Program-made: the position numbers and the translations under genes | From: Candidatus Cloacimonadota bacterium | Lineage (GTDB): Bacteria; Cloacimonadota; Cloacimonadia; G963667145 | Assembly: GCA_963667145.1 (NCBI GenBank) | Contig: OY762943.1 | Coordinates: 1,236,251 to 1,300,250 of the forward strand | Length of the DNA stretch: 64,000 nt | Direction: 5' to 3' | The notes under the pieces: generated by a model | Told to the model about the DNA's origin: nothing | Seen by the model: only the letters and a program-made list of their open reading frames with translations | The model's database searches: none | Shown here: positions 26,323 to 53,174 of the stretch, piece by piece | Layout of the letters: each line of letters begins with the position of its first letter | Position numbering within the stretch: position 1 is the stretch's first letter

Positions 26323-26350
26323 ATAAATAAAAGCTAATTTAGGGGAACTT

Positions 26351-26848: not shown

Positions 26849-26857
26849 GGAGATAAG

Positions 26858-27847: not shown

Positions 27848-27850
27848 TTT

Positions 27851-32857: not shown

Positions 32858-32858
32858 A

Positions 32859-35800: not shown

Positions 35801-36125
35801 TAAACAATGCTGGTGTTGTTATTCAAAGTGAATTTAAATTAGACTACTGTAGAATTGAAACAGGAGCTTTATGATAATGCGATGGAAACAGCAAAGCATT
35901 TAAATTAGACTACTGTAGAATTGAAACAGAAAATTTTGGAGTTTTTTTCATTTTTGGAAAGAGATTTAAATTAGACTACTGTAGAATTGAAACAAGCTAT
36001 TCTTGGGGGAAATAAAATGAGTAAATGAATATTTAAATTAGACTACTGTAGAATTGAAACATTTTAAGGCTTGAAAATGTGGGGATTTTTGTCAAATTTA
36101 AATTAGACTACTGTAGAATTGAAAC
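32859..36125 (+). CRISPR. CRISPR array, distal half (about 50 repeats), resuming with the 3' part of the split repeat
   Basis: It has the same repeat as the proximal half. It includes the variant repeats ATTTAAGTTAG... (about 33372) and ...GAATTGAAGC (about 35790). Confidence 0.95.
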
Positions 36126-36726: not shown

Positions 36727-37063
36727 TATGGTTATACAAATAGAGATAGATTATGCAAAGGATTTAGTTAACTTGAAAAGTTTTTTTTGGCTGTGAGACG
36801 CCCTCTACTGTAAGGCAACAAAAAAGGTCGCAATCCTTTAGGACTACGACCCCAATTCCGGAGAAGAATTGAACCCTCTATAGTCAGTCAAAAAAAAGAG
36901 GGCTTTCTAATCAGTCTATCATCTTAGAGGGGAGAAAAGAAAATTCCCCTCAAACTATTTTGTTCATGGTTAAAAAGGTTTATAACTATAGATTGAATAA
37001 GCTAAAAACTATTTAACAAATTGTTGATTAGTGGAAAATAATTGCAAGAAAAAGTTTGATTTT

Positions 37064-40000
37064 TTAGTTAGAGAAAGCGGGTTTGTTTGCAAGTAACCAA
37101 GCATTTGCATTTGTGTCAAACCCAGGAGGTGTAGGGAGGAACTGAGTCCATGTATTCCAGTTAATAAGATTTTGGTTGAAAATAGAAGCCCCGTTGAACA
37201 TATATTCCATATTGTTTACTTTACTCAAATTCCAGTCACTAATATCTTGATCGAAACCGCGAGCACCAGTAAACATCCAGCTCATATTTTCTACATTAGC
37301 AGTTTTTTCTTTCCAGTTGCCAATATTACCGTTGAATGCAGTGTTTCCGTAAAAGAGGCTACTCATGTCTTTTACATTGATTACATTCCATCCGCCGATG
37401 TCTTGATTGAAAGGAGTTTCTCTGAACATGGCTGCCATGGTGGTCACTTTGCCTACATCCCAGCTACTTATATCTTGGTTGAAGGAACTTGCTTGATAGA
37501 ACATATAACTCATGTCATTTACATTGCTAGTTTTTGTTCCCCAGTTACCTATGCTGTCGTTAAAAGCGGTTGCTCCGAAGAACATACCACACATAGTGGT
37601 ATCGTTGCTTACATCCCAGTTACTAATTTTACCATTAAAAGAGGATGCAAATTTAAACATACCGTCCATCGCTTTTACTTTGCTCACGTTCCAATTGTTA
37701 AGGTTTTGATTGAATGCTTTACAACATTTTATGGTATCATCACCGCCGAACATATAACCCATGTCTTCTACGTTGCTAACATCCCAGCCACCAATTTCTT
37801 GGTTGAATGTGGTGTTTTCAAAGAACATATATCTCATATTTTTTACACTGCTCACTGTCCAGCCAGTAATATCTGCGTTGAAGGATTGAGCTCTGCAGAA
37901 CATACTGGTCATATCTGTTACCTTGCTCACGTCCCAGCCACTAATGTCTCCATTAAAGGCTTTGGCATCTGTGAACATATTACTCATATTTGTTACGCTA
38001 TCCACTTTCCAGTTGCTGAGGTCTTGATTGAATAGAGTATCGCCATAGAACATAAAGCTCATGTCTTTTACTCTGCTTACATCCCAGTTGCTGATATTTT
38101 GGTCGAAGTTACCATTATCCTTAAACAATCTGCTCATATCCGTAATCTCGGAGGTGTTGACTTTTTCTACATTTTCGCCGTTTGCTATCTTTGTTCTGAG
38201 ATCTTCTATGGTTATAGCAGGTATTGTCATCCTTATAGTGAAGTTGTTTCCAGTGCTGTCTCCGTTGGTGGTGTTCACAGCTATTGAACTAAGTGAAGTT
38301 GCTGTTGTTGCATCATAGTCAGTTGGCACGGTGAGTGCTACCGTATATGTTCCCGCCAAAAGTCCGCTGAAGGAGTATATGCCACGGTCGCCAGTAGTTG
38401 TGGTTTTATTGGAACTCCCGCTCAGAGTTATAGTTGCCCCCTTATAGGTAGCTCCAGTAACTGTGCTGACTTTGCCTGAGATGGAATAAGTTGGTGTCAG
38501 ATTGAAGTTGTTGTTTGTGCTGTCGGCGTTGCTGACGGTGATAGATTTGGTGGTATCGTCAGCGATGTAACTATTAGGGATAGTTAGGGTTACGTTGTAT
38601 GAGCCGTTTAGCACATTGAAAGCATAATCGCCGTTGGCATCTGTGGTGACAGTGTCGTTGAAATCAACAATCGGAGAAGTATTAGAAGTTCCGCTCAATC
38701 TTAAGGTGTCGCTTCCGTGTCCTGTCACTTTTCCAGAGACGGTATGATATTTCCATATGGCGAAATTTTTCCATGATATGTTGGAAGAAGTTAAACTGAC
38801 AGATATAGTTGTTGTGGGGGCATAATATCCACTTGGAGTGGTGAGCCTTACTTCGTATGAACCAGTAGTTGTTATTCCGCTGAATTTGTATGACCCGTCG
38901 CTTGCTGTGGTTGTGGTGGCAACGGAATCTTTTGAAACTCCTGGAACTACAAAATACAACTTCAACGTAGCATTTTCATATTTTTCTCCAGTAGCTCCGT
39001 TAGACACTTCTCCTGAGATAAAGTAAGTTTGTGTTAGCGTGAAGTCGTTGCCAGTGCTGTCAGCTTCGTTTATGTCTATGTCTAATGTTGTGTCGTTGGC
39101 AATCCAATCTTCAGGAATATCTATGGTTACATGGTATTTTCCACTTACCAATCCGTCGAAGGAGTAGTTTCCACTGACCCCTGTGAGAGTGGCAGAAGAG
39201 TCTCCGCTCAAGGTCAAAGTGACACCTCCATAGTTAAGGATAGATCCCTTGATGGAATAGGTCTTTTGTATAGTGAAGTTTTGCCCCGTGACGTTGTCAT
39301 TGCTAATCGTGATGGAGAGCGTTGTGTCTTTCGTGAAGTAACCAGTCGGGTTAGTGAGTTTGACTGTGTAATCTCCTGTTACTAATCCGCTGAAGGAGTA
39401 TGAGCCGTCGCCTATCGAGGTGGTAGAGGCGATGGAGTCTGCACTGGAGTTATACAAAGTCAGATATGCACCATCTGTGTAGTCGGAGGTGTTACTTCCG
39501 CTCAGGATGTTGACCTTGCCCAAGATGGAATAAGTTGGAATTAGCGTGAAGTCGTTGCCAGTGCTATCGGCATTATCTATGGGGATAGATTTGGTGGTAT
39601 CGACAGCGATGTAGTTCTCGGGGATAGTCAGAGTTAGGTTATAGGTTCCGTTTATTGCTTTGAAAGAGTAGTTCCCATTTTCATCCGTAACTGTTGTATC
39701 AGCGAAGTCTGTGAGTATAGTAGTAGTTCCGCTCAATCTTACGGTGTCGTTTCCATGTCCCGTAACTTTGCCAGAGACGGTGTATTTTTTCCATAAGGTA
39801 AAGTTGATTGTTTTGTCATTAGAATAGATTATGGTTGTGGGAGCTGAGTCGGTAACAAAATAGTCGCTTGGAGTAGAGAGTGTTATTGTGTATGTGTTGC
39901 CAGTTGATGACCCTAATACTCCACTGAATTTGTATTCACCGTTGATGTCTGTGGTGGCAGTGGCGATTTGATTTCCGCCAAAGCTCAAGGTTAAGGTAGC

Positions 40001-43000
40001 GTTTGCAATTTTTTCATCGTTATTCGCTGGAGCAGTAACAGTTCCCGAGATATTGTATGTCTGAGTCAGATTGAAGTTGTTGTTTGTGCTGTCGGCGTTG
40101 TTGACGGTGATAGATTTTGTGGTATCGTCAGCGATGTAGTTCTCGGGGATAGTCAGAGTTAGGTCATATGTTCCGTTTATTGCTTTGAAGGAGTAGTTGC
40201 CACTGCCATCTGTAACTGTTGTATCAGCAAAGAATGTGCCTGCATTAGTATTTCCGCTCAATCTTAAGGTGTCGTTGCTGTGTCCTGTGACCTTACCAGA
40301 GACGGTGTGATATTCCCAAATGGTGAAGTCTTGATTCGGTATATCACCACTCAGTGAGGAGACGTTTATGGTAGTGTCGGCGGAATAGTAATTGCTTGGC
40401 GTCGAGAGAGTTACTGTGTAGTTTCCTGCCACTAATCCGCTGAAAAAGTATGCACCATTCGTCGTTGGAATTGTTTTGTTCGCCGTCAAAGAGCCACCGC
40501 TTATCGTCACGTTGGCACTTCCCGTGAAGTTGCTACCGTTGAGCTTCACATTCCCCGAGATGGAATAAATCGGAGTCAGATAGAAGTCTTTTGTTACATT
40601 GCCTCCGCTTATCGTTATTGTCGCCGTGGTGTCGTCAGCGATGTAGTTCTCGGGGATAGTCAGAGTTAGGTCATATGTTCCGTTTATTGCTTTGAAGGAG
40701 TAGTTGCCACTGCCATCTGTTACTGTTGTATCAGCAAAGAATGTGCCTGCATTAGTATTTCCGCTCAATCTTATGGTGTCGCTTCCGTGTCCTGAGACCT
40801 TACCAGAGACGGTGTGGTATTCCCAAATGGTGAAGTCTTGATTCGGTATATCACCACTCAGTGAGGAGACGTTTATGGTAGTGTCGGCGGAATAGTAATT
40901 GCTTGGCGTCGAGAGAGTTACTGTGTAGTTTCCTGCCACTAATCCGCTGAAAAAGTATGCACCATTCGTCGTTGGAATTGTTTTGTTCGTCGTCAAAGAG
41001 CCACCACTTATCGTCACATCGGCACTTCCAGTGAAGTTGCTACCGTCGAGCTTCACATTCCCTGAGATGGTGTAAGTCGGGGTTAGATTGAAGTTCTTGG
41101 CGACATCGCTTCCGCTTATAGTTATTGTCTCGATGGTATCGTCGGCAATGTAGTTCTCGGGGATAGTCAGAGTTAGGTCATATGTTCCGTTTATTGCTTT
41201 GAAGGAGTAGTTGCCACTGCCATCTGTTGCTGTTGTATCAGCAAAGAATGTGCCTGCATTAGTATTTCCGCTCAATCTTAAGGTGTCGTTGCTGTGTCCT
41301 GTGACCTTACCAGAGACGGTGTGATATTCCCAAATGGTGAAGTCTTGATTTGGTATATTGCCACTCAGCAAGGAGACGTTTATGGTAGTATTGGCGGAAT
41401 AGTAACCGTTTGGTGTTGAGAGAGTTACTATGTAATTGCCTGCTTCCAATCCGCTGAAGGAGTATGAGCCGTCGCTTGTCGAGGTGATAGAGGCGATGGA
41501 GTCTGCACTGGAGTTATACAAAGTCAGAGTTGCACCATTGTATGTTCCGCTCGGCGAGATGTTGACTTTACCCGAGATGGAATAAACTGGAGTTAGCTTA
41601 AAGTTTTTGGGAATAGGGCCCGTCACAGTGTATGTTTCTGTTGTGTCATCGGCAATGTAATTATCAGGGATTGTTAGAGTTATGGTATATGTGCTGTCTT
41701 TTATTAGCCCTGCGAATGTGTATGTTCCGCCGTTCCCATTTGGAGTTGCTTGATGCACTTGGTTGTTTGCGTAGTCGGTTAGAGTCACGGTAACAGTTTC
41801 ACTGCTGTATCCAGTGATTGTTCCACCTATGGAATAAGTCGGAGCCAGCGTGAAGTCTTGATCTGGAGTGTTTGCACTCAGTGAGGAGATGTTTATGGTA
41901 GTGTTGGCACAATAGTAACCACTTGGTGTTGAGAGAGTTACGGTGTAATTTCCTGTCGTTAATCCGCTGAAGGAGTATGCACCATTCGTTGTTGTAATTG
42001 TTTTGTTCACCGTTAGAGAGCCACCGCTTATCGTCACATCTGCACTTCCCGTGAAGTTGCTTCCGTTGAGTTTAATATTCCCTGAGATGGTGTAAGTCGG
42101 AGTCAGATTGAAGTCTTTGGTTATATTGCCTCCGCTTATCGTTATTGTCTCGGTAGTATCGTCAGCAATGTATGTACTGGGGATAGTTAGCGTTAGAGTA
42201 TAGTTTCCGTCTATTGCATTGAAGGAATAGTTGCCACTGCCATCTGTAACTGTTGTGTCAGCGAAGACTGTGTTTGCATTAGTATTTCCGCTCAATCTTA
42301 AGGTGTCGTTGCTGTGCCCTGTGACCTTGCCAGAGACGGTGTGGTATTCCCAAATGGTGAAATTTTGCCCCGTGATGTTGGCATTGCTGATGGTAATGGA
42401 GAGAGTTGTGTCTTTTGAGAAGTATCCGCTCGGGTTAGTGAGCTTCACTGTGTAGTTCCCTGCCACTAATCCGATGAAGGAGTATGAGCCGTCGCTTGTC
42501 GAGGTGGTAGAGGCGATGGAGTTTGCACTGGAGTTATACAAAGTCAAAGTTGCACCGTTATTATATGATGCCCCGCTCGGCGAGATGTTGACAGCACCCG
42601 AGACAGTGTATGTTTTTTCCGTGATAGTGAAGTCGTTCCCCGTGCTGTCGGCATTGCTTAGTGTTACGGATTTTGTTGTAGTTGTGGCTGTGTAGTTGTT
42701 AGGAACTGTGAGTTTCACCGTGTAAGTGCCTGCCTCAATTCCTGCGAACGAATATGAACCATTGGCATCGGTAGTATCGCTCGACAAAGCTGTGGAGGAG
42801 GAATCGAAAAGAGTTAAAGTAGCATTTTGGTATTTGCTTCCTGTTGATGTTGTTACGTTTCCAGAAATTGTGTATGTTACTACAGTAATGGTAATGTCGT
42901 TGCCAGTAGTGTTGTTATTCTCCATCTTAACCGTGATGGTCTCAGTTTTGTCTTCTGGAAGTAAAACGGTTATGGTATAGTCTCCATTTTGGGTCACTGT

Positions 43001-43729
43001 AAAAGAGTATGACCCGTCTTCTCCAGCTACAATTGTGTCGATAGTGGGTCCGCTCAAAACTATTGTGGCACCACTATAAACTCCTCCGATAGATTTTTTA
43101 AGCACGCCAGATATTGAGTAGGTTTTGGTAATAGTAAAGTCGTTTCCAGAGCTGTCTGCTCCACTCAGGATGATATGTTTTTCAGTTTCCGAGGAAATGT
43201 AAGTGTCTGGCACAGTCAAGGTTACAGTGTATGAGCCGTCAGCTAAGTTGGGGAAAGAATACGTGCCGTCACTTGCTGTAGTTGTGGTGGCACTGGAAGC
43301 TCCGCTTAGCGTTACAGTTGCCCCGCTGTATTTTTCTCCAGTGGATGTGGAGACTGTGCCTGATATGGAATAGAGGCTTTTAATGATAAAGTTGTTGTTG
43401 GTACTGTTAGCACCGCTCAATAACACTGTTTTTGTAGTTGTATCGGAAACATAATCACTAGGAACGGTAAGAGTTAATGTGAAAGAGCCTGTTGGAAGAT
43501 TTTTAAAAGAGTAATTGCCAAGGCTATCAGTCGTAATGCTAGCGGATTTGGAATTGTTGCTCAAAGTTATGGTGGCACCTTTGTATGCTACTCCTTCAGA
43601 AGTTTTGACCACACCAGAAATTACATAACTGTAAGAATTGTAGGAGCTTACAGTCGTTTCATAGTTAGTGCAAGAAAGCAAAAGAATAATGAAAAACAAG
43701 ATAAATAAAAAAATATTTCTTTTTTTCAT
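37064..43729 (-). CDS. Giant (~2221 aa) surface lipoprotein: about 17 tandem Ig-like/Cna-B (CarboxypepD_reg-like) domains plus a C-terminal ~500-aa array of DUF285-type 26-aa repeats
   Basis: The start is chosen at ATG 43729 (MKKRNIFLFILFFIILLLSCTNY, a lipobox). The tandem modules run YSISGxVxTSTGxxYxGATxTLSG...GxYSFxxLxxGxYTVTLTxPxxY. The C-terminal units run FNQDISNWDVSxVxDMSxMFxxAxxFN. The DNA carries near-identical tandem repeats of about 500-560 bp (e.g. around 40120, 40640, 41130). Confidence 0.75.
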   Translation of the reverse strand: MKKRNIFLFILFFIILLLSCTNYETTVSSYNSYSYVISGVVKTSEGVAYKGATITLSNNSKSASITTDSLGNYSFKNLPTGSFTLTLTVPSDYVSDTTTKTVLLSGANSTNNNFIIKSLYSISGTVSTSTGEKYSGATVTLSGASSATTTTASDGTYSFPNLADGSYTVTLTVPDTYISSETEKHIILSGADSSGNDFTITKTYSISGVLKKSIGGVYSGATIVLSGPTIDTIVAGEDGSYSFTVTQNGDYTITVLLPEDKTETITVKMENNNTTGNDITITVVTYTISGNVTTSTGSKYQNATLTLFDSSSTALSSDTTDANGSYSFAGIEAGTYTVKLTVPNNYTATTTTKSVTLSNADSTGNDFTITEKTYTVSGAVNISPSGASYNNGATLTLYNSSANSIASTTSTSDGSYSFIGLVAGNYTVKLTNPSGYFSKDTTLSITISNANITGQNFTIWEYHTVSGKVTGHSNDTLRLSGNTNANTVFADTTVTDGSGNYSFNAIDGNYTLTLTIPSTYIADDTTETITISGGNITKDFNLTPTYTISGNIKLNGSNFTGSADVTISGGSLTVNKTITTTNGAYSFSGLTTGNYTVTLSTPSGYYCANTTINISSLSANTPDQDFTLAPTYSIGGTITGYSSETVTVTLTDYANNQVHQATPNGNGGTYTFAGLIKDSTYTITLTIPDNYIADDTTETYTVTGPIPKNFKLTPVYSISGKVNISPSGTYNGATLTLYNSSADSIASITSTSDGSYSFSGLEAGNYIVTLSTPNGYYSANTTINVSLLSGNIPNQDFTIWEYHTVSGKVTGHSNDTLRLSGNTNAGTFFADTTATDGSGNYSFKAINGTYDLTLTIPENYIADDTIETITISGSDVAKNFNLTPTYTISGNVKLDGSNFTGSADVTISGGSLTTNKTIPTTNGAYFFSGLVAGNYTVTLSTPSNYYSADTTINVSSLSGDIPNQDFTIWEYHTVSGKVSGHGSDTIRLSGNTNAGTFFADTTVTDGSGNYSFKAINGTYDLTLTIPENYIADDTTATITISGGNVTKDFYLTPIYSISGNVKLNGSNFTGSANVTISGGSLTANKTIPTTNGAYFFSGLVAGNYTVTLSTPSNYYSADTTINVSSLSGDIPNQDFTIWEYHTVSGKVTGHSNDTLRLSGNTNAGTFFADTTVTDGSGNYSFKAINGTYDLTLTIPENYIADDTTKSITVNNADSTNNNFNLTQTYNISGTVTAPANNDEKIANATLTLSFGGNQIATATTDINGEYKFSGVLGSSTGNTYTITLSTPSDYFVTDSAPTTIIYSNDKTINFTLWKKYTVSGKVTGHGNDTVRLSGTTTILTDFADTTVTDENGNYSFKAINGTYNLTLTIPENYIAVDTTKSIPIDNADSTGNDFTLIPTYSILGKVNILSGSNTSDYTDGAYLTLYNSSADSIASTTSIGDGSYSFSGLVTGDYTVKLTNPTGYFTKDTTLSITISNDNVTGQNFTIQKTYSIKGSILNYGGVTLTLSGDSSATLTGVSGNYSFDGLVSGKYHVTIDIPEDWIANDTTLDIDINEADSTGNDFTLTQTYFISGEVSNGATGEKYENATLKLYFVVPGVSKDSVATTTTASDGSYKFSGITTTGSYEVRLTTPSGYYAPTTTISVSLTSSNISWKNFAIWKYHTVSGKVTGHGSDTLRLSGTSNTSPIVDFNDTVTTDANGDYAFNVLNGSYNVTLTIPNSYIADDTTKSITVSNADSTNNNFNLTPTYSISGKVSTVTGATYKGATITLSGSSNKTTTTGDRGIYSFSGLLAGTYTVALTVPTDYDATTATSLSSIAVNTTNGDSTGNNFTIRMTIPAITIEDLRTKIANGENVEKVNTSEITDMSRLFKDNGNFDQNISNWDVSRVKDMSFMFYGDTLFNQDLSNWKVDSVTNMSNMFTDAKAFNGDISGWDVSKVTDMTSMFCRAQSFNADITGWTVSSVKNMRYMFFENTTFNQEIGGWDVSNVEDMGYMFGGDDTIKCCKAFNQNLNNWNVSKVKAMDGMFKFASSFNGKISNWDVSNDTTMCGMFFGATAFNDSIGNWGTKTSNVNDMSYMFYQASSFNQDISSWDVGKVTTMAAMFRETPFNQDIGGWNVINVKDMSSLFYGNTAFNGNIGNWKEKTANVENMSWMFTGARGFDQDISDWNLSKVNNMEYMFNGASIFNQNLINWNTWTQFLPTPPGFDTNANAWLLANKPAFSN

Positions 43730-43867
43730 CTTAAAACATGCCCCCGCTAAATTCACAACCTTTCGTAAAACAATTTCAAATTCAATTTACACAATCCAAT
43801 GTTACTATTGGTGTAAAAAAATCAACAAAAATTATAATTTTTTGTAAGATTGTTTGGAATTTTTTGT

Positions 43868-45037
43868 CTACAGCCCTCTGCTATCAAGTTCAATGGGATA
43901 GGCAAATTCAAAGAAGATTTTGTTTTCGCTGTCGGTTCTGCCGTAAGTGAATTGGACATTTACGTTAATTGGAGGCTGAAAATAAAATTCCACACCGCAT
44001 CCGTACGCAAATTTATTGGTGTTGTCATCAAAATTTGAGCCCCAAGTTTTTATCCCATCCACGAAGATTAGCGGAGAGATGAATTTGCTCATATCCCAAA
44101 ATAAGTCGAAAGAGAGCAGAGTGGAGTTTAAGCTGTATTTTTGTGAATTTAATTCCGATCTGAATTTTTTGCTGCCTTCGTTATTTTCGTAATTAGTCAA
44201 TTTTCCTGTGTTTTTGTTAAAGTGTGAATATAGGCGTGTTCGGTTTCTAAAGTTTTCAGCCCATTGGGAATAGCAAAAGTATTCACTGTTGATGCCATCG
44301 TAGGAGGCATCTTTGAATTTCAACTCTGATTTGAAAAAATTGCCTTTGGTGGTTTTGATGATTTTGTCTCTTGTGTCTATGCAGAAGTATGGATTTATGC
44401 TGAAAGAGTTATCTTCCAAGGTGCGGTTGTCACTTTCGGAATTTTGCAATTTTGCTTTGCTTCCTAAGTAATAGAAATCTCTCAATTTAATTCGCAAATC
44501 TATGTCGTAGTAAATTTTGTCTATGTTTTGATTTTTGATTTCTTCTTCGGATTTACAGGCTTGAAATCCTAAGGAAGCAAACTTGCTAATTGGTTGCCAA
44601 GCACTGAGTTGCACAAAGTTTTTGCCTGCTTCCACTCCGACAAATATTCCTCGATTAAACAAATTGTTCATTCCCAAAAATAGGGGATGTGTGCCTCCGC
44701 CAATTCGCGGACGAAAGCCGTCTTCTAGTTCGATAATTATTTTTACGACAGAGGTGTCTTTTGCGATTTGATAAATTTCGACTTTGTAAAAAAATCCCAG
44801 CTCGATTAATCTTTGTTTGCTGTTTTCGATTTTGTGTTGCAAACTCAGGATGTCATAGTAAGCATTTTCTCGAATAGGAATGTGGTAAAGCACAGCGTCT
44901 TTTGCCATTTTCGTTTTCCCACAAACTTTTATTTTATCGACAAGCAAAGTTTTGGCATAGCCAAGGTTTGCAGTTGTCAGCAAAATCAGAAAGAGCAATA
45001 GCTTAATCTTGCTTGAATGCAAGGATATGTTAGTCAT
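43868..45037 (-). CDS. Putative Omp85-family outer-membrane protein with an N-terminal POTRA-like domain
   Basis: Signal peptide KIKLLLFLILLTTANLGYA. There is a POTRA-like beta-alpha-alpha-beta-beta segment (LLVDKIKVCGKTKMAKDAVLYHIPIRENAYYDILSLQHKIENSKQRLIELGFFYKVEIYQIA...VKIIIEL). Alternating aromatic beta-strand patterns continue to the C-terminus (FAYGCGVEFYFQ...QFTYG). Its start overlaps the TPR gene stop by 8 bp. Confidence 0.5.
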   Translation of the reverse strand: MTNISLHSSKIKLLLFLILLTTANLGYAKTLLVDKIKVCGKTKMAKDAVLYHIPIRENAYYDILSLQHKIENSKQRLIELGFFYKVEIYQIAKDTSVVKIIIELEDGFRPRIGGGTHPLFLGMNNLFNRGIFVGVEAGKNFVQLSAWQPISKFASLGFQACKSEEEIKNQNIDKIYYDIDLRIKLRDFYYLGSKAKLQNSESDNRTLEDNSFSINPYFCIDTRDKIIKTTKGNFFKSELKFKDASYDGINSEYFCYSQWAENFRNRTRLYSHFNKNTGKLTNYENNEGSKKFRSELNSQKYSLNSTLLSFDLFWDMSKFISPLIFVDGIKTWGSNFDDNTNKFAYGCGVEFYFQPPINVNVQFTYGRTDSENKIFFEFAYPIELDSRGL

Positions 45038-45737
45038 CGAAAAACACCTCTAATTCTTTTTCTGCCAAGTCTTTGTAGTAATTAGTGGTTGAAATTGCAA
45101 TTGTTTTTTCCCAATACTCTTTGGCTTCCATCAGTTTCTTTTCACTCTTAAACATCTCTCCAGCAAAATAGTAAATAGCTTCTAACACACTGTTGTCAAA
45201 CCTATTAGGATTTTTGTTTGTTAGCTCTAGGAAGTATTTTACATCAGCAAAGAAAACCTCTTGGCGTTTGAAAAAATCTGGTAACGAGGGCGAATTATTC
45301 AAGCGAACCAGTCGCACATCGATATTGCTCTCGTCCATTGCCACAGCTGTGTCTATCAAGGCGATTCCTTGGTCAACAAATTTGATTTTGTTCAGCGGAT
45401 TTGCTGCGTCTCTGCCCATCAGAGTTCTGGCACTTCCCAAATATACCAGAGCCAAGGCGTTTTCTCTATCAAGTTCACAAGCTTTTTTCAGATAGTTGTG
45501 AGCAATTTCCGAGGTGGTTTGATTTCCTCCTACGCTGATGTTGTGGTAGGCAATTCCCAAGATGAGCAAAGCATTGGTGTCCTCAGGGTTATCTTGGAAT
45601 ATTTTTTCGTATTTTTCGGTTATTTTGTTCAACTCTTTTTCATCGTGCATGGAAGCTACGGAAGAAATTGTTAATTCATTTGCTAACAATAAAATAGACG
45701 AGAAAGATAGTAGCAGAATTAGATAAAATTTTTTCAT
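45030..45737 (-). CDS. Secreted TPR-repeat protein
   Basis: Signal peptide MKKFYLILLLSFSSILLLA. There are multiple TPR-like helical pairs (LLILGIAYHNISVGGN..., ALALVYLGSARTLMGRD...). Confidence 0.65.
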   Translation of the reverse strand: MKKFYLILLLSFSSILLLANELTISSVASMHDEKELNKITEKYEKIFQDNPEDTNALLILGIAYHNISVGGNQTTSEIAHNYLKKACELDRENALALVYLGSARTLMGRDAANPLNKIKFVDQGIALIDTAVAMDESNIDVRLVRLNNSPSLPDFFKRQEVFFADVKYFLELTNKNPNRFDNSVLEAIYYFAGEMFKSEKKLMEAKEYWEKTIAISTTNYYKDLAEKELEVFFDD

Positions 45738-45781
45738 AATTTATTTCCTTTCATAAATTAAGGTTAATTTGAGAAATATTT

Positions 45782-46969
45782 TTAGAAATAGTACAACAAC
45801 TTCAGATCACAATAGAGGCTGTAAAATGTTTGGTTGAACTCCGAATAGCTCTTCCCATTTTGCCAAGAGATGGTGGATTTTATTGAGTAGTCGTCGTTTA
45901 GGTTGTAGGTGTTTTCGTTGTAGAGCAGATAGGAAAAATCGTAAACATTGATTTTACTTCCGAAATTTGCATCAATCTTTTGGAGGATGTTTTGCTTGTT
46001 GAGGGAAATGCCGATGTAGTGTCTGCACAAATCTACGCGGTTTTTGTAAAGAGTTGCCAGATAACTTTTGCTAACTTGTCTGAAGATTTGGTCGCTTTCT
46101 ATTTTTCGGAAGAAATTGCCGTATTCAGCCTCTGAAAATCCGATTTGATTGTAATAGTACTCCAAAGTCATGTCGAAGTCGTTGGGCAACAAGGCTTTCA
46201 CTCCGAAAGTCGATTGAGCGTAAAATTTTTCGTTGTCCTCCGAATGGAGATAAGAGTAATACTTGGTTTCCTTTATGGAATATCTTTTTTCGGGCTGTGA
46301 GAGTTTGCTATCCAGTTGAAAAATGACGCTCTTAAATTTGGGATGAGAGTAGGAAGCACACAAGGTGTAATTTTGCAAATTGTCGCCGATGTCGTAGGTA
46401 GAGAGGAAGTTGAAGTTTAGGTTTTTGACGCTTTGGGACACGACAATTCCCGCAAGGTCTTTGTCTTGGTCAGCGAGGTTTTTGTAGGAAGAATTTTTGA
46501 GCTGTGGAATGTAAAACAGACTAATGGAGCGGTAAGTGATTTTCTCCATCCAGTAGCCACTGACCTCGTTTCGCGAGTACTTTTTGCTGTAAATATCGCC
46601 AAAATCCCAGTTCTCGGAATTGCTGTAAATCAAGGTGTTTTTCCCCTGAGAGAAAATCAAATTGTCGCACGGGAAGTATTCCAAATTGAGCGAATAGAGG
46701 TAGAGATTGTCTTTTTGTTCTTTCAAGTCGAACGAGTATTTTTCTCGGAAGTTGAAAAGCAACTTTTCGCTCAGGACAAAATCGCCTTGCAAGTCCCACG
46801 CCAATGGGTAATTGAATTTGTGGTCTTGGGTGTGGAAAAGGGAGTTGTCTTTTTGGTGCAGGTATTCCACGGGAATTTCAAGCGTGTTCAAAAAGGACAA
46901 ATCCACAGCTTGCAAAAGTGAAAAAAGGAGCAAGAAAACTGCACAAGTTTTTTTCATTTTTCCTCTCAA
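45782..46969 (-). CDS. Hypothetical outer-membrane beta-barrel-like protein (395 aa)
   Basis: It has a signal peptide, alternating aromatic/hydrophilic beta-strand patterning throughout, and the C-terminus ...LKLLYYF ends in an aromatic residue, as is typical of OMPs. Confidence 0.45.
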   Translation of the reverse strand: MRGKMKKTCAVFLLLFSLLQAVDLSFLNTLEIPVEYLHQKDNSLFHTQDHKFNYPLAWDLQGDFVLSEKLLFNFREKYSFDLKEQKDNLYLYSLNLEYFPCDNLIFSQGKNTLIYSNSENWDFGDIYSKKYSRNEVSGYWMEKITYRSISLFYIPQLKNSSYKNLADQDKDLAGIVVSQSVKNLNFNFLSTYDIGDNLQNYTLCASYSHPKFKSVIFQLDSKLSQPEKRYSIKETKYYSYLHSEDNEKFYAQSTFGVKALLPNDFDMTLEYYYNQIGFSEAEYGNFFRKIESDQIFRQVSKSYLATLYKNRVDLCRHYIGISLNKQNILQKIDANFGSKINVYDFSYLLYNENTYNLNDDYSIKSTISWQNGKSYSEFNQTFYSLYCDLKLLYYF

Positions 46970-46970
46970 C

Positions 46971-47711
46971 TCATCGAACGAATTTCAGATAAGACGGCTG
47001 AAAAATGTCGTCAGAATAATTTTTTTGCTTATCCGAGATGACCTGCATTTCGTAGTAGCCGTCTTTGTTGAGGATGTTGTTGCCACGCATCTTTTTGGGC
47101 ATATCGTTCACATAGTCGCGATAGAAGGCTGTGCCGAACAAAATCCCGCTTTTGGTGTAGTTTTCCACTTTCAAGAGTTTTCCCTTATCGACGGAATTTT
47201 CTATGGTGAAGTAGGAAACTTTTTTGTAGAAAGCGGGCTTTTTTCCTTCCTTGGCGGAAAACTCGATTACCAAAGTGTCTGCATTTTGCCTCAGCAATTT
47301 GTAGTGGTAGTTTTCCAAAAGTGGCGGAGTCATTATTTCGCCGATGACCACACCGCCAAACATTCCACTGCGGGGCGAAATCCGCGAATATTTTTTTGCC
47401 TTGGGGAAGTAGATGTAGTAGGAGTTGTCTTTTTGCAGGAAGACCTTGCCCTTTTGCTTTTTTGGAGACAGGAATACAGTTAGCGTGTTGCTTCCCTTGG
47501 TCATCAACTTCAGCTTCACGGTGCTTTTGATTTCGCCGTTTTTGTCCATTTCGTCGGTTTGGAGTATTCGCTCGAAAGAGTAATATTTTTTTTCAATTTC
47601 GCCAATTCTCTTCACGGCTCGTTCCAAAAGCTCCTTTTTGTCCATTTGGTTTTGGGCGAAGAGGCAACTTCCCGCAAGCACCAACGATGCCAAAAATATT
47701 TTCTTAATCAT
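46971..47711 (-). CDS. LolA-like/outer-membrane lipoprotein-sorting-like periplasmic protein
   Basis: 246 aa with a signal peptide (MIKKIFLASLVLAGSCLFAQ). Its size and beta-rich profile, and the gene order directly downstream of an FtsX/MacB-type permease, match LolA-like proteins found with such ABC systems. There is no strong motif proof. Confidence 0.45.
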   Translation of the reverse strand: MIKKIFLASLVLAGSCLFAQNQMDKKELLERAVKRIGEIEKKYYSFERILQTDEMDKNGEIKSTVKLKLMTKGSNTLTVFLSPKKQKGKVFLQKDNSYYIYFPKAKKYSRISPRSGMFGGVVIGEIMTPPLLENYHYKLLRQNADTLVIEFSAKEGKKPAFYKKVSYFTIENSVDKGKLLKVENYTKSGILFGTAFYRDYVNDMPKKMRGNNILNKDGYYEMQVISDKQKNYSDDIFQPSYLKFVR

Positions 47712-48948
47712 ATCTTAGCCCTTCCACGATATTTATTTTGGTGGATTTTACAGCAGGAATGATGCTCCCGAAAATTCCCAAGAAGATGTTTAAGACGATG
47801 ATTTTCAGAGACATAGCGAATGTGGTGATTACCATAAATGGCGTTCCTTCCGATTGTCCCGGGAATGGAGGCAAAATGACGTCGGAAAAGTTGATGATGA
47901 TGGCGGAGATTTTTGCCAAGATTATTCCGAGAATTCCTCCGAAAATGCAGATGAAGCATCCTTCCAAGATGATGAGCAAGAAGATGGACGATTTGCCGAT
48001 GCCGATAGATTTCATAGTGGCGATTTCGCGGGTTCGCTCCATGATGGACATGAAAATGGTGTTGGAGACCAGCACGATGATGAGGATGACCAACATGATG
48101 GTGACAATGCCGAGGATGTTGTCGAACATCTGTGTAACTTGGCGGAATTCTTTGGCGAGCTGAAGCCACGATTTTATTTCCATATCCAAATTGTTTTTCT
48201 TGAATTCGCTTTGCAGGAAGCTCGTTACAGCTGGAATATCGTCTCGGCTATCCAAAAGCACGGGCATGGAATGGATGTTCTCCGTGAGTGTGATGTCTTT
48301 GGTCAAATCCAAATTCGTCAGAATCAAAATCTCGTTGATGGCATCGATGGAATAGTCGGCAACTCCGCGGACTTTCGCTGCCACAGCCTCAAAAGAGTTG
48401 TCAACGCTTTGTCCCATCAGCAAGACCTCATCGCCGAGGTTCAGCTCCATTTTTCTCGCCATATCTATGGGAACGACCACGCCAGTTTTTTCTTTTTCGG
48501 ACAAGGGTTTGCCATTCTTGATGTTGGAGTCTCCATAGGAACTGCTGTTGAACGAAGCCATCATTTTTTCTTTTTTGGGTTGCATACCTTGTGCAAAAAA
48601 CATCTTGGAAGTGGTTTCTGTGCCGATGAGTCCGACAAGATTTACCCGCTCCAGAGAAAGCAAAATCTTATCGTTATTTTTGCAGATTTCGTAAATTTTG
48701 GCTTTCTCTTCTGGAGTGATGGAATTTTTGAACGAGGTGTTTTCTCCGTCCAAATAGCCACTTTTGAAGATTTGCAAATGTCCGTATTGGAAGTGGATGA
48801 GTGCGTCCGACCAAAAGTAGTTTCGGGCGTTGTTGTAGCCAGCAAAGGTGAGCAGACAGGCGGAACTGATGATGACACTGAGCATAGTCAGCAAAGTTCG
48901 GCGTTTGTTGCGGAAGATATTTCTGAGGGCTAATTTTAGCAGTTTCAT
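47704..48948 (-). CDS. ABC transporter permease, FtsX/MacB/LolCE family (TM1 + ~220-aa periplasmic domain + 3 TM)
   Basis: The N-terminus MKLLKLALRNIFRNKRRTLLTMLSVIISSACLL is followed by a long soluble domain and a C-terminal FtsX-like TM bundle (...MSIMERTREIATMKSIGIGKSSIFLLIILEG...). Confidence 0.85.
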   Translation of the reverse strand: MKLLKLALRNIFRNKRRTLLTMLSVIISSACLLTFAGYNNARNYFWSDALIHFQYGHLQIFKSGYLDGENTSFKNSITPEEKAKIYEICKNNDKILLSLERVNLVGLIGTETTSKMFFAQGMQPKKEKMMASFNSSSYGDSNIKNGKPLSEKEKTGVVVPIDMARKMELNLGDEVLLMGQSVDNSFEAVAAKVRGVADYSIDAINEILILTNLDLTKDITLTENIHSMPVLLDSRDDIPAVTSFLQSEFKKNNLDMEIKSWLQLAKEFRQVTQMFDNILGIVTIMLVILIIVLVSNTIFMSIMERTREIATMKSIGIGKSSIFLLIILEGCFICIFGGILGIILAKISAIIINFSDVILPPFPGQSEGTPFMVITTFAMSLKIIVLNIFLGIFGSIIPAVKSTKINIVEGLRYD

Positions 48949-49691
48949 TTTTCTTCTATCTCCTTTTTTATCTCTTCCATTTCCAGATAGAAGTCGGGTT
49001 TGCTCGGCAAATCGTTGGGAATTCTGCTGAAGTAGAGCAGAGCTTTCTCATCGTTTTTGATTTCTTGGTGATAAAATTTTCCCACAAAGAAGTTGATAAG
49101 TGCTTGGCTGTAAAGGGCGTTCAGATAGGCGTTCGTGTTTTGTCTATTTTGCAATAGTTCATCGAACCAAGCGTTGGTCATCTCGTAATCTTCCAAAATT
49201 GTTTCCTCGAAATCGTAGTATTTTTTGGGATAATTGACCAGTGAGGAAAGGCGATAGAAGCGGATTTCGGGATTTTCCATATCTCTTATCACGGCTTTGT
49301 TGAGTAGTTTGATGGCTTTTTTGGAACTGAAGATGACAAAGGGGAAATGGTCGTATTGCAGATTGATGGAGTTGATGAAGCCAGCGAAAGCCAAATAAAT
49401 CGGCTGTTTGTTCTTCTCCGTGAAATTTTCCATCAAGTCCTTGGCTTGGCGAATACATTTTTTGTAATCTTTGTCCGATTGCAAATTCATATTACTGCTC
49501 TGGTCGGTGAAATTGTAGTAGCAATTCAGAGCCTGCAGAAAGTCGTGATTGTCGCTTTCTTTCTCGATTGTCATCTCTCTCAGCTGAAAAGCAGTGGGAA
49601 TTTCAAAATTGGGTTTGTCCATTGCATAAGCTGTTGAAAAGCAGACAAATAAAAGTAAACTGATTATGCTTATTTTGAAAAATTTGTTCAT
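48945..49691 (-). CDS. Hypothetical secreted alpha-helical protein (248 aa)
   Basis: Signal peptide MNKFFKISIISLLLFVCFSTAYA. It is embedded between the ATPase and permease genes, with stop and start overlaps on both sides. Confidence 0.45.
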   Translation of the reverse strand: MNKFFKISIISLLLFVCFSTAYAMDKPNFEIPTAFQLREMTIEKESDNHDFLQALNCYYNFTDQSSNMNLQSDKDYKKCIRQAKDLMENFTEKNKQPIYLAFAGFINSINLQYDHFPFVIFSSKKAIKLLNKAVIRDMENPEIRFYRLSSLVNYPKKYYDFEETILEDYEMTNAWFDELLQNRQNTNAYLNALYSQALINFFVGKFYHQEIKNDEKALLYFSRIPNDLPSKPDFYLEMEEIKKEIEEK

Positions 49692-49692
49692 C

Positions 49693-50373
49693 TTAGTTTC
49701 CTCCTTGGTTTATGTTGCCGTCTTTGAGGTGAATTTTGTTTTCGATTTTCGCCAAAAGCTCCGTGTCGTGCGAGGCGATGATGAATGTGGTGTCGTGGAG
49801 TTTGGCTTCTTTTTGCAAGAGCTTGAGCATTATTTGGCTGGTTTTGGAGTCCAAACTCGCAGTCGGTTCGTCCGCCAGTACCAAAAGCGGTTTTCGCACC
49901 AAGGCTCTGGCTATGGCAACGCGTTGTTGTTGACCGCCCGAGAGTTGCTTGGGAAATCTGTTTTTGAGTTCCAAGATTTCCAATTGCTCCAAAAGGTCGT
50001 GGATTCTGTTTTTTTTCTCTTCGTGCGAGATAGATGAGTGCCAGAGCGGAAGTTCCACATTTTCGTAAACATTCAGAGTTGGAATGAGGTTGAAAGATTG
50101 GAAGATGAAGCCGACCTTATTTCTTCGGAAATCCGACAGATAGCTCTCTTTGCATTTGGAGATTTCTTCATCTTCAAAGAGATATGAGCCAGACGAGCAA
50201 TTGTCTAAGCATCCTAAGATGTTGAGCAAGGTAGATTTCCCTGAGCCCGAGGGTCCTATTACGGCGACAAACTCTCCTTTGGCGATTTGCAGGTTGACGC
50301 CTTTGAGAGCAGGAACGGAGATGGTTTTGCTTAAAGTGTAGTCTTTTTTGATGTTTCTAAGTGACAGCAGCAT
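49693..50373 (-). CDS. ABC transporter ATP-binding protein (MacB/LolD-like)
   Basis: GPSGSGKST, Q-loop, LSGGQQQRVAIARAL, LVLADEPTASLD, H-loop. Confidence 0.9.
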   Translation of the reverse strand: MLLSLRNIKKDYTLSKTISVPALKGVNLQIAKGEFVAVIGPSGSGKSTLLNILGCLDNCSSGSYLFEDEEISKCKESYLSDFRRNKVGFIFQSFNLIPTLNVYENVELPLWHSSISHEEKKNRIHDLLEQLEILELKNRFPKQLSGGQQQRVAIARALVRKPLLVLADEPTASLDSKTSQIMLKLLQKEAKLHDTTFIIASHDTELLAKIENKIHLKDGNINQGGN

Positions 50374-50376
50374 AAT

Positions 50377-50643
50377 TTATTCCTCCCTTTCCAGTTTTGC
50401 TAACTCTTTTGCCAACATTTTCTTTTTCAAGTTTGTGCTTCCGAAGACGTCAAAGGTGTTGATGAAGTGGAAGAACAAGCCAATTCCCCAACCGAAGAGC
50501 GGATAAATCGCCCAAAAATGTCCGTAATAATTGAGCGAATTGAAAACTATCAAAAATGTGTTTACTATTAAGTACACGAGAAGGTGGGTGTAAAATGAAA
50601 GCTTGTTTTCCACAATCTTCTCGGCTTTTTGTTTGTTGTTCAT
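50377..50643 (-). CDS. 2TM-domain small membrane protein
   Basis: 88 aa with two hydrophobic helices and a C-terminal charged coiled tail (KKKMLAKELAKLEREE). It lies immediately downstream of the PadR gene, a common PadR-2TM pairing. Confidence 0.6.
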   Translation of the reverse strand: MNNKQKAEKIVENKLSFYTHLLVYLIVNTFLIVFNSLNYYGHFWAIYPLFGWGIGLFFHFINTFDVFGSTNLKKKMLAKELAKLEREE

Positions 50644-50657
50644 AAAAATTCTCCTTC

Positions 50658-50951
50658 TTAATTCAAAAGGCTTTCCAGCGTTTTCACGTATTGAGCAAAG
50701 TCGTCTCTGCCCTTATTGGTCAGGGAATAGTAGGTCGCCGGCTTCCTATCGATGAACTTTTTTTCCACGTGGATGTATTCGGCTTCCTCCAGTTTCTTCA
50801 GGTGAACGGAGAGGTTGCCGTCGCTGGCTTTGGTTTGCTTTTTCAGAAAATTGAAATCCGCTTTTTCCACTCCTATCAAAATGGACATAATCGCCAAACG
50901 GATACGCGAGTGGATGAGGTTGTTGATTTTTTGATAATCAAAGCTCGGCAT
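50658..50951 (-). CDS. PadR-family transcriptional regulator
   Basis: The winged HTH LIHSRIRLAIMSILIGVEKADFNFLKKQTKASDGNLSVHLKKLEEAEYI matches PadR. The start is chosen at MPSFDYQK. Confidence 0.8.
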   Translation of the reverse strand: MPSFDYQKINNLIHSRIRLAIMSILIGVEKADFNFLKKQTKASDGNLSVHLKKLEEAEYIHVEKKFIDRKPATYYSLTNKGRDDFAQYVKTLESLLN

Positions 50952-51525
50952 GGCGATTTTTCTTGTATAAAACAATTCCGGGAATTACTTGCAAGGCGAT
51001 GATGAGAACGGCGAAGAGAAGCAAACTGTAGCTGGAAATCCAAAACAGAAAAACAAAAGAAGAGGCAAACCAGCAAATTCCCGAGATTTTTAAGATTTTG
51101 TTTTCGTAGATTATTCCCGAAATGAAGTGAGCGAGGCTGAGAGTGAGGGCAGGGAAAAGCACTGCAATTTCCTCGGAAATGTAAGGCGAATACAAAGCCG
51201 CAAAAAGCATAGTCGCCATTATAAGCATTGTGGAACCCCAAAGACCTATAATAATTTTACTCAAAAAAGTTATCGGCAAGTTTTTTCTCTGTCTGCTTCC
51301 CGAGACAAAGCTGATAATTCCGCCTGTGATGTAGGTAACTGCCCACATTCGATTGATGTACGAATAGTTTTCGGTTTGTATCATAAAAAATGTTCCAATG
51401 CAGGCAAAGGAAACCAAAATTCCCCATGTGATGTAGTGCATACCGTTGTCGAACACTTTTTTCTTGGATTCCTCGATCATCTGTTTTATGTATAGAATTT
51501 CGTTTTGGACTTCTTTGTTTTCCAT
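50938..51525 (-). CDS. Hypothetical polytopic membrane protein (195 aa)
   Basis: It has five to six hydrophobic helices and overlaps the PadR start. Confidence 0.45.
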   Translation of the reverse strand: MENKEVQNEILYIKQMIEESKKKVFDNGMHYITWGILVSFACIGTFFMIQTENYSYINRMWAVTYITGGIISFVSGSRQRKNLPITFLSKIIIGLWGSTMLIMATMLFAALYSPYISEEIAVLFPALTLSLAHFISGIIYENKILKISGICWFASSFVFLFWISSYSLLLFAVLIIALQVIPGIVLYKKNRHAEL

Positions 51526-52091: not shown

Positions 52092-53174
52092 ATGAAAAAT
52101 TTATTCTATGCAGGTCTTTTATTATTGCTTTTTTGTGGATGTGCTGTAGAATTGACTAAAGCTGTTCTTTCTGGCAAGTCTTATAAACCTTATGAAAATG
52201 TACCAGCTTCAAACTCTTATGCCACTGATAATAATAAAACTGGCAATTATGTTGGTGCATCAGAGGAGTGGCCGAATTTATCTAATTATTCTTCAGCCTT
52301 CAAAGATTCCTCAGAAGAATGGCCTGATTTGTCTAATTATTCCACTGCCTTCAAAGATAGCTATGTGGACATCCGTAATAATATCCCCATCACTCGCAAG
52401 AAAAATAAAAATGCCATTGGTGTTATCATTGGCAATCAGAGATACTTGAATAGGGATGTTCCCAGTGTTGATTTTGCCCTAAACGATGCTAACTATATGA
52501 AAAAATATTTGGTGAATACACTCGGATATGATGAAGGCAATATCATCTATATAGAGAACGCTACGCAGACAGATTTCATCACTGTTTTTGGGAATGAGAA
52601 AAGTTACAAGGGCAAACTTTACGATTGGGTGAAAGAGAATAAGTCGGATGTGTTTGTATATTATGCAGGTCACGGAGCACCAAATCCTGAGAACAAAAAC
52701 GGCTATTTTGTCCCCACTAATGCTGACCCAACAAGGCTTGATTTGACTGGCTACAATCTGAACCTTTTTTACAAAAATTTGAGCCAAATCAAATACAAAT
52801 CTTTGACAGTGGTTTTGGACGCTTGCTTCAGTGGAGTTAGCGAGAAAGGGATGCTTCTGAAAAATGTCTCTCCGATAATGCCGAAAGTGAAAACCGATTA
52901 TGTTCTCAAGAAAAACACTTGTATTTTCACTTCTGCATCTGAGGTGGAAGTTTCCTCTTGGTATCCCGAAAAACAACATTCGTTGTTTACATATTTTTTC
53001 TTGAAAGGTCTTCAGGGAGAAGCGGACGCTAACAAAGACAAAATAATTTCATCTAAAGAGTTAAAAAAATATTTGGATGAGAATGTTGTTTACTTTGCTC
53101 GCCGAATAAGTAGCCGAGAGCAACACCCACAATTAGTTGAGAATAATCCTATCAACATTGCCAATATTAGATAG
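52092..53174 (+). CDS. Caspase-family (peptidase C14) lipoprotein
   Basis: Lipobox LLLFCGCA. The catalytic His-Cys dyad sits in conserved context: VFVYYAGHGAP...LTVVLDACFSG. A tandem 17-aa repeat SEEWP(N/D)LSNYS(S/T)AFKDS lies before the protease domain. Confidence 0.8.
   Translation: MKNLFYAGLLLLLFCGCAVELTKAVLSGKSYKPYENVPASNSYATDNNKTGNYVGASEEWPNLSNYSSAFKDSSEEWPDLSNYSTAFKDSYVDIRNNIPITRKKNKNAIGVIIGNQRYLNRDVPSVDFALNDANYMKKYLVNTLGYDEGNIIYIENATQTDFITVFGNEKSYKGKLYDWVKENKSDVFVYYAGHGAPNPENKNGYFVPTNADPTRLDLTGYNLNLFYKNLSQIKYKSLTVVLDACFSGVSEKGMLLKNVSPIMPKVKTDYVLKKNTCIFTSASEVEVSSWYPEKQHSLFTYFFLKGLQGEADANKDKIISSKELKKYLDENVVYFARRISSREQHPQLVENNPINIANIR

Follow-up and report, generated by a model that had tools for sequence, protein, structure and literature searches.

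We analysed a 64-kb window of DNA from a Candidatus Cloacimonadota bacterium (64,000 nt of contig OY762943.1; unqualified coordinates below refer to this window), in which ten tightly packed minus-strand genes (51525-43868; hereafter the cassette) are followed by a giant lipoprotein gene. Our best explanation, to which we assign a probability of roughly 0.55, is that the cassette encodes one regulated, envelope-spanning export module, for a specialised lipid or other hydrophobic cargo more probably than for a protein, and that the giant gene is separate from it. An earlier note on the same DNA had instead taken the gene train for a pathway devoted to a single very large surface lipoprotein. 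The module is of the same type as the BBJ23-29 cluster of Borrelia and is related to environmental modules with TPR, ABC, FtsX, LolA-like and barrel genes. The composition of the cassette has already been described; its occurrence outside Borrelia, the widespread five-gene core and the gene-cluster association are new. Gene order, domain families, distribution in relatives and the point at which conservation breaks are direct observations.

The open reading frame (ORF) list of the window has eleven minus-strand ORFs within 51525-37064, all in one direction, which bears out the co-directional train of the earlier note:

50938..51525, minus strand: 195-aa polytopic membrane protein, first gene of the train (hydrophobic stretches; no Pfam or NCBIfam match)
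50658..50951, minus strand: 97-aa HTH_34 winged-helix regulator, ArsR/PadR-like superfamily (PF13601, 111 bits)
50377..50643, minus strand: 88-aa 2TM-domain membrane protein (PF13239, 78.6 bits)
49693..50373, minus strand: ABC ATPase of the MacB/LolD/DevA group (ABC_tran, 125 bits)
48945..49691, minus strand: 248-aa secreted helical protein, probably a divergent TPR-like chaperone (signal peptide in the sequence)
47704..48948, minus strand: 414-aa FtsX-type (type VII ABC) permease with a periplasmic domain (FtsX, 50.2 bits)
46971..47711, minus strand: 246-aa LolA-fold periplasmic carrier, TP_0789-like (PF17131, 66.6 bits)
45782..46957, minus strand: 391-aa secreted protein ending LLYYF, probable barrel (remote DUF1302 relative)
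45030..45737, minus strand: 235-aa secreted TPR-like protein (sub-threshold Pfam TPR matches)
43868..45037, minus strand: 389-aa secreted protein with one POTRA domain and a beta-rich C-terminal region of ~285 aa, candidate small Omp85-type barrel
43730..43867, minus strand: 138-nt AT-rich spacer from the POTRA gene to the giant gene, where the conserved block ends
37064..43729, minus strand: 2221-aa lipoprotein with Ig-like and DUF285 domains (lipobox LLLSC; Pfam domains)
36824..36853, minus strand: intrinsic-terminator-like hairpin after the giant gene (13-bp stem with 6 GC pairs, then a T run)

The junctions within the cassette are tight, again as previously noted. The membrane-protein and HTH genes overlap, and gaps of 14, 3 and 1 nt follow at the HTH/2TM, 2TM/ABC and ABC/helical junctions. 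The helical and FtsX genes overlap by 4 nt and the FtsX and LolA-like genes by 8 nt; the LolA-like/barrel gap is 1-13 nt, depending on the choice of start codon. A 44-nt gap lies between the barrel and TPR genes, the TPR and POTRA genes overlap by 8 nt, and the 138-nt gap before the giant gene is as the earlier note gave it. The sole strong terminator-like hairpin on the minus strand sits past the giant gene (36853-36824).

The relationship between cassette and giant gene can be judged from relative L004, which has the same ten cassette genes (proteins 96-99% identical) followed by two giant genes. The DNA common to the window and L004 forms a block of 7944 nt at 96.9% identity that starts upstream of the first gene and breaks after window position 43855, 13 nt beyond the POTRA stop codon. 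The spacer measures 138 nt in the window versus ~396 nt in L004, and across the giant gene the DNA alignment falls to 65-89%, with repeat expansions. At the protein level, the giant protein is 52% identical to its L004 counterpart, compared to 96-99% for the cassette proteins. Since identity breaks after the POTRA gene, the spacers differ and the giant gene has diverged, we regard the giant gene as a separate evolutionary unit. In L004 (13486-21176), two giant lipoprotein paralogues stand in tandem, both with a lipobox, and the first contains a run of 252-nt tandem repeat units (15584-18134), suggesting rapid repeat turnover in this gene family. As part of the best explanation we therefore lean towards viewing the giant gene as a hypervariable surface-protein gene that evolves fast and whose position downstream of the cassette in this species is fortuitous.

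The giant protein itself is largely as the earlier note described it. Its N-terminus, MKKRNIFLFILFFIILLLSC, contains the lipobox LLLSC, and Pfam finds 4 DUF285 stretches and 16 Ig-like stretches of the CarboxypepD_reg/SdrD_B type, so that the lipobox and DUF285 repeats stand and the count of about 17 Ig-like domains becomes 16. A 1690-aa protein with GLUG motifs is encoded elsewhere in the window (5431-10503, minus strand), so that proteins of this giant surface type are no rarity in the genome.

More distant relatives have the core of the cassette in shorter forms. Relative L008 (84%) lacks the 2TM gene and has the membrane-protein, HTH_34, ABC, helical, FtsX, LolA-like and barrel genes, while relative L003 (72-76%) has ABC, helical, FtsX, LolA-like and barrel genes, followed by ribosomal-protein and housekeeping genes. 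On the short contig L005, FtsX, LolA-like and barrel genes are present (55% identity for the carrier and 39% for the barrel), and the train ends at the barrel. No giant gene accompanies the genes seen in L003, L005 or L008, and L003 and L005 have no TPR or POTRA gene either; of three independent lineages, two thus have the core but no giant gene. With the permease as anchor, a metagenome scan yielded 80 loci. Among the 44 loci of at least 6 kb, 23 have a PF17131 gene beside the permease and 20 have a homologue of the 391-aa protein. None of the 26 LolA-positive metagenome loci has an ORF longer than 1000 aa, and none has a POTRA homologue. The neighbourhood check proposed in the earlier note, i.e., whether the cassette goes with a giant lipoprotein, thus came out against such a link. 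A profile scan of genome contigs with the LolA-like alignment gave one locus, in a metagenome-assembled genome labelled Desulfobacterales, and a word-indexed search of 5.8 billion proteins placed the carrier in 5 clusters.

The genes around the related modules provide information on the likely cargo. In L007, an orthologue of the POTRA protein (58%) is encoded directly upstream of a ketosynthase and a 4HBT thioesterase; next in line are genes for an ABC ATPase, an FtsX permease, a PF17131 protein, a 423-aa protein and an acyl carrier protein (ACP) synthase. The modules of L007, L011 and L016 are embedded in fatty-acid/polyketide-type gene clusters, with KAS, ACP, FabA, acyltransferase, 4HBT thioesterase, ACPS and FeeM genes among the flanking genes across the three. 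In L016 (2-9281), the export module is coupled to genes for a membrane-anchored FeeM-like N-acyl amino acid synthase, a GCV_T-like aminomethyltransferase and an ACP, and to three ketosynthase-type genes, FabA and an acyltransferase. The module of L011 (3-7979) is coupled to a B12/radical-SAM enzyme, two enoyl-CoA hydratases and an acetoacetate-decarboxylase-like gene. Taken together, the clusters of L011 and L016 have two or three ketosynthases, with a 3-hydroxyacyl-CoA dehydrogenase among their other genes. In L026, the module stands alone among housekeeping genes. The six permeases nearest to that of the window, outside its own lineage, are those of these single-permease modules; this is a distance ranking only, as the neighbour-joining tree of FtsX proteins did not resolve. 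Because the nearest modules sit in fatty-acid/polyketide-type clusters, we consider a lipid or hydrophobic product a more likely cargo than a protein.

These data bear directly on the proposal that the cassette, or at least the TPR and POTRA genes at its end, serves the giant lipoprotein(s) alone, drawing them out of the inner membrane, conveying their lipid anchor across the periplasm and passing the protein to the cell surface through the POTRA barrel. A clear lipobox is present in the giant protein of the window and in both L004 paralogues, cassette and giant gene are co-directional with no terminator in between, and in the few lineages seen, this locus has either all three of the TPR, POTRA and giant genes or none of them. 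Moreover, the best structural-family matches of the permease are LolF and LolCE, and lipoprotein cargo is also entertained by the authors of the Borrelia study (PMC13078400). However, the adjacency occurs in only one independent lineage, and relatives of the TPR and POTRA proteins are encoded beside ABC/LolA-like modules and lipid genes, never beside giant ORFs. Conservation breaks exactly between the POTRA and giant genes, where the spacers differ in length; the L004 spacer has a TTGACA, picked by eye, without a matching -10 (no promoter scan was made on L004). There is also no Slam or TpsB family signal. We consider such a route unlikely, and the more specific proposal, in which a Lol-like extractor, the LolA-fold carrier and the small Omp85-type POTRA protein would form a dedicated inner-membrane-to-surface pathway for very large lipoproteins, appears to us more doubtful still. 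If true, it would mean Omp85-based export of surface lipoproteins in some diderms including spirochaetes, distinct from Slam and BAM-coupled export. As judged from sequence comparisons, a dedicated giant-lipoprotein pathway is not supported: L003 and L005 do without a giant gene, the POTRA and TPR relatives are found in lipid clusters, and the block shared with L004 ends after the POTRA gene.

The likeness to a split Slam or to TpsB suggested in the earlier note likewise finds no sequence support. TpsB proteins have two POTRA domains and a ShlB-type barrel, and their TpsA cargo has an N-terminal TPS domain. The cassette has one POTRA domain only, with no ShlB or Bac_surface_Ag match at E<=0.1, and the giant protein is without Haemagg_act/TPS. 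For Slam, the 391-, 235- and 389-aa proteins have no DUF560 (PF04575) match at E<=0.1, and the TPR matches are sub-threshold.

The Pfam and NCBIfam searches confirmed the 2TM, ABC, FtsX, LolA-like and POTRA assignments, but neither the PadR label of the earlier note nor a direct barrel match. The ATPase (ABC_tran, 125 bits) falls in the MacB/LolD/DarD group, with DarD (222 bits) and LolD (213 bits) as top NCBIfam matches, both under their equivalog cut-offs. It is 45% identical to the L007 ATPase and 36% to Borrelia BBJ26. Together with the FtsX match of the permease (50.2 bits, cut-off 25.5), the ABC_tran score identifies a type VII ABC transporter. The permease has its closest PDB matches in LolF, YtrF, MacB and LolC/E, is 27% identical to BBJ27, and is presumably a homodimer since there is a single permease gene. 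The FtsX part of the previous FtsX/MacB-LolCE-like call stands, while the MacB_PCD match, spanning residues 18-242, remains below threshold (19.4 bits, cut-off 27) and lolCE scores 75 bits against 362. The carrier reaches 66.6 bits for PF17131 against a gathering threshold of 30, with 183 of the 184 profile positions covered, and matches the LolA-superfamily protein NE2245 in the PDB (3BUU, E 4e-9), in agreement with its description as LolA-like. PF17131 is its sole match; the LolA family PF03548 is not matched at E<=0.1. Elsewhere, PF17131 genes are found in operons with MMPL genes in Bacteroidota, and in Treponema pallidum a PF17131 gene adjoins TP0790.

Two gene calls for the permease deserve comment. 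An antisense 359-aa ORF lies inside the permease gene (window 47854-48933, plus strand; L004 8025-9104), and in L004 the gene caller picked it over the permease, of which the frame is intact (98% identity over 414 aa). The antisense call is an annotation artefact. In L008 (4615-5856), the permease frame diverges at the C-terminal end, probably due to a frameshift or assembly error.

Like LolCDE-LolA(-LolB), the cassette combines a type VII ABC extractor with a soluble LolA-fold carrier, and its single permease resembles LolF. The layout of LolD, LolCE/LolF and LolA is what could suggest a housekeeping Lol pathway serving all outer-membrane lipoproteins. However, the scores are far under the equivalog cut-offs (lolCE TIGR02212, 74.9 bits versus 362; LolD TIGR02211, 212.6 versus 307.75), and the carrier belongs to PF17131 rather than PF03548. 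The cassette differs further in its extra TPR, barrel and POTRA components and in the lack of a LolB. Its proteins fall in 3-5 clusters among the 5.8 billion, unlike what would be expected for an essential conserved pathway, and Borrelia holds a separate chromosomal LolA (PMC13078400). A housekeeping role is therefore very improbable.

The 391-aa protein has no direct match to any Pfam family and falls in 3 clusters in the word-indexed search. Exhaustive HMMER searches of 1.84 billion representatives with the barrel profile gave 3 clear and 6 marginal matches, without informative domains. Jackhmmer joins the protein to ~425-aa proteins encoded after the carrier gene in 23 metagenome loci, yielding an alignment (A6) of 23 sequences: 20 metagenome members and the proteins of the window, L003 and L005. 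Within A6, 10 of the 23 sequences match DUF1302 (best E 3e-16) and 7 match Wzi. Profile comparison with hhalign connects the window clade to the L007-type clade (probability 97.6%, E 3.5e-12), and the L007-type clade to the DUF1302-positive clade (probability 91%, E 1e-6). The signal peptide, the absence of hydrophobic helices and the terminal F, which is nearly invariant in the family, all agree with a DUF1302-type barrel. The 391-aa protein is thus probably a remote DUF1302-type outer-membrane barrel. This keeps the beta-barrel of the earlier note, by way of a transitive relationship and not by a direct Pfam or profile match.

The 235-aa TPR-like protein (TPR235) has homologues of 32-38% identity encoded directly upstream of the ABC gene in L010, L011, L016 and L026 and, going by these neighbourhoods, is a conserved component of the ABC/FtsX/LolA-like/barrel modules. 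The 248-aa helical protein matches no Pfam or NCBIfam family. It has weak collinear similarity to the 235-aa protein (BLASTP, E 2e-4) and to the TPR235 family (hhalign, E 3e-4, probability 41%), from which we take the cassette to have two TPR-like proteins. Two such proteins are also found in the modules of L010 and L016.

For the 389-aa protein, the POTRA domain (residues 33-104) is above the Pfam cut-off (24.6 versus 21.3 bits), and its profile also matches POTRA5 of BamA (E 0.004). The C-terminal region has no PF01103, barrel-family or PDB barrel match, so that the POTRA half of the former POTRA/Omp85-like call is confirmed and the barrel half is not. The excess in beta-amphipathicity is weak (z 2.2-2.6), and no relationship was found between this protein and the DUF1302-like family. 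Only two clusters among the 5.8 billion proteins contain it, the other one being that of L007 (58% identity), and a metagenome scan with the POTRA alignment found nothing.

From these components we infer the barrel folds, the nature of the cargo, the way it is transported and the sequence in which it is handed on, as follows. A homodimeric type VII ABC transporter would pull a non-polar, probably acyl-bearing cargo from the outer leaflet of the inner membrane and pass it to the LolA-fold carrier (PF17131), assisted by the two secreted TPR-like proteins. Delivery to the outer membrane could then proceed through the DUF1302-related barrel and the small POTRA-bearing protein, and expression would probably be controlled by the HTH_34 regulator together with the two small membrane proteins encoded beside it at the start of the train. 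The envelope-spanning, Lol-like set described in the earlier note survives in part: an ABC engine, a LolA-fold carrier, secreted helical proteins and two probable outer-membrane proteins make a coherent set, for a non-polar cargo.

The same component classes have been reported for the BBJ23-29 cluster, which was described by computer analysis in Borrelia; alongside an ABC ATPase and a MacB-like permease, it encodes a LolA-like protein, a member of the Omp85 family, a pair of TPR proteins and one unknown protein (Biosci Rep 2026; PMC13078400). The authors state that they found the seven-gene cluster in Borrelia only and count lipoproteins among its possible cargoes (PMC13078400). The suggestion that no described system has this composition is thereby overturned. 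We compared the cassette with lp38 and three other Borrelia plasmids. All seven component classes are shared, in a co-directional cluster and with similar sizes, including two secreted TPR proteins that are remote paralogues, a single MacB-like permease and one 330-390-aa protein of unknown function. The proposed mechanism is the same as well, and in the Borrelia group 2 clusters the Omp85-type gene comes last, as in the cassette. There are also clear differences. A POTRA domain is present here, whereas BBJ25 is reported to be without one; the gene order is not the same, and one TPR gene lies between the ATPase and permease genes; the cassette has a three-gene regulatory head; and it resides on a 1.54-Mb contig, in contrast to the small linear plasmid (lp38) of Borrelia. 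At the sequence level, homology to BBJ23-29 is apparent for two components, the ATPase (36%, E 2e-44) and the permease (27%, E 4e-28), and is family-level at best for the carrier.

Several observations weigh against an export module for a hydrophobic cargo that is separate from the giant gene. The lineage of the window has all three of the TPR, POTRA and giant genes and L003 and L005 have none of them, a pattern that also fits one unit. No lipid-biosynthesis genes are present in the 64-kb window, nor beside the module in L003, L005 and L026. The link between the 391-aa protein and DUF1302 is transitive, and direct profile comparison of the window clade finds nothing. The AlphaFold2 models, built on 4 aligned sequences for the 391-aa protein and on 2 for the POTRA protein, are unusable, with confidence (pLDDT) values of 31.8 and 30.7, and the beta-amphipathicity of the barrel candidates is weak in a simple hydrophobic-moment test (z about 2). 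Finally, only the ATPase and permease have significant similarity to Borrelia proteins; the accessory proteins have none to BBJ23, 24, 25, 28 and 29. The hints that do exist are weak (barrel profile versus BBJ29, 12.4 bits; TPR235 versus the BBJ24 family, E 0.004, probability 8.5%). Comparison of the POTRA protein with the BBJ25 family by hhalign is negative, and tblastn of the POTRA and barrel proteins against plasmids gives no matches.

The group 2 plasmids offer a further clue to cargo. Here, the BBJ23-29-type cluster is followed by SagB/SagC/YcaO-type genes, a CAAX protease and a membrane protein (L094 9335-13930, Borrelia afzelii PKo lp28-8; L095 9400-13902, Borrelia sp. RT5S p-lp25), an adjacency of which there is no mention in the 2026 paper (PMC13078400). 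This suggests that the group 2 module could export the streptolysin-S-like product of the adjoining Sag genes, a ribosomally synthesised and post-translationally modified peptide (RiPP). Both the lipid-cluster and the SagBCD contexts indicate small hydrophobic products as cargo.

Another reading is a stress-inducible efflux or resistance module, in which the HTH_34 regulator and the membrane proteins would sense an envelope-active hydrophobic toxin, such as an antimicrobial peptide, a bile or fatty acid, or a bacteriocin or RiPP, and a MacB-type pump, carrier and barrel would expel it. The ATPase has its top scores with RiPP/bacteriocin and MacB exporters (DarD, L_ocin_972_ABC, MacB), the group 2 clusters lie directly upstream of SagB/SagC/YcaO genes, and the regulator and 195-aa membrane-protein genes head the operon and are kept in both L004 and L008. 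However, a membrane-fusion adaptor and a TolC-type duct, normal parts of MacB-type efflux, are absent: none of the ten cassette proteins matches an adaptor or outer-membrane-factor family in Pfam or NCBIfam. In addition, a soluble LolA-fold carrier suggests delivery to the outer membrane and not expulsion, and the regulator is absent from the metagenome modules. We judge efflux to be improbable.

The regulator itself was labelled PadR in the earlier note. Its PadR score is only 21.3 bits (cut-off 27), versus 111 bits for HTH_34, showing that PadR is a mislabel for an HTH_34 winged-helix protein; it is also called as 97 aa in L004 and L008. The 195-aa protein has strongly hydrophobic 19-residue stretches (maximum Kyte-Doolittle 2.86). 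The 2TM protein appears dispensable for the core, since its gene is absent from L008. The DNA preceding the first gene has no clear operator palindrome.

An export module for a lipid or hydrophobic product would have parallels outside Borrelia. In the DUF1302/DUF1329/BNR/RND clusters of Proteobacteria, a LolA/LolB-fold protein and a DUF1302-type barrel are likewise combined with an inner-membrane exporter. The function of these clusters is uncharacterised, although they are tied to hydrophobic substrates; the fitness phenotypes common to DUF1302, DUF1329 and RND genes have been interpreted as "export of cell wall component" (Price et al., bioRxiv 10.1101/072470). They differ from the cassette in their engine (RND versus ABC/FtsX) and carrier (PF07044 versus PF17131); moreover, a BNR protein is missing here and the barrel is only a remote, transitively linked relative. 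The second parallel is the aryl-polyene cluster with its export genes ApeL (LolA-like), ApeM (RND) and ApeN (LolB-like) (PMC8253772), where a LolA-fold carrier and an inner-membrane transporter are found inside a fatty-acid-synthase-like cluster and transport of lipid to the outer membrane is proposed. L007, L011 and L016 follow this logic, while the window is without biosynthetic genes; differences also exist in the engine, in the parts at the outer membrane and in the enzymes of the gene cluster.

Beyond a few model pathways, little is understood of the way in which lipids, lipid-anchored molecules and surface lipoproteins pass through the periplasm and outer membrane, and the class to which the cassette belongs (a MacB-type pump, a PF17131 carrier, a DUF1302-like barrel, TPR proteins and sometimes an Omp85-type protein) lacks experimental work. 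To the 2026 description we add the seven-part layout in a non-Borrelia genome (1.54-Mb contig, type I CRISPR-Cas, ~40% G+C), a five-part core that is widespread in environmental metagenomes, and the nearest cores built into lipid-biosynthesis clusters, with the Borrelia group 2 clusters beside SagBCD-type genes. If the cargo is indeed small and hydrophobic, the class would represent a general outer-membrane delivery route for specialised lipids; if it is a lipoprotein, the class would bear on surface-lipoprotein export.

The surroundings of the cassette contain some further features. The window has no tRNA or Rfam matches. A Peptidase_C14 (caspase-like) gene followed by a DUF4384 gene (52092-54005, plus strand) is divergent from the cassette, and the pair is kept in L004. 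On the other side, a type I CRISPR-Cas operon (Cas6, Cas7, Cas3, Cas4, Cas1 and unassigned ORFs) and then an array occupy 19564-36100. The array is ~7.5 kb long, has the 30-nt repeat ATTTAAATTAGACTACTGTAGAATTGAAAC and is interrupted by an IS transposase gene (31624-32712, minus strand). The G+C content of the CRISPR region is low (24-34%), and ~1 kb separates the end of the array from the 3' end of the giant gene.

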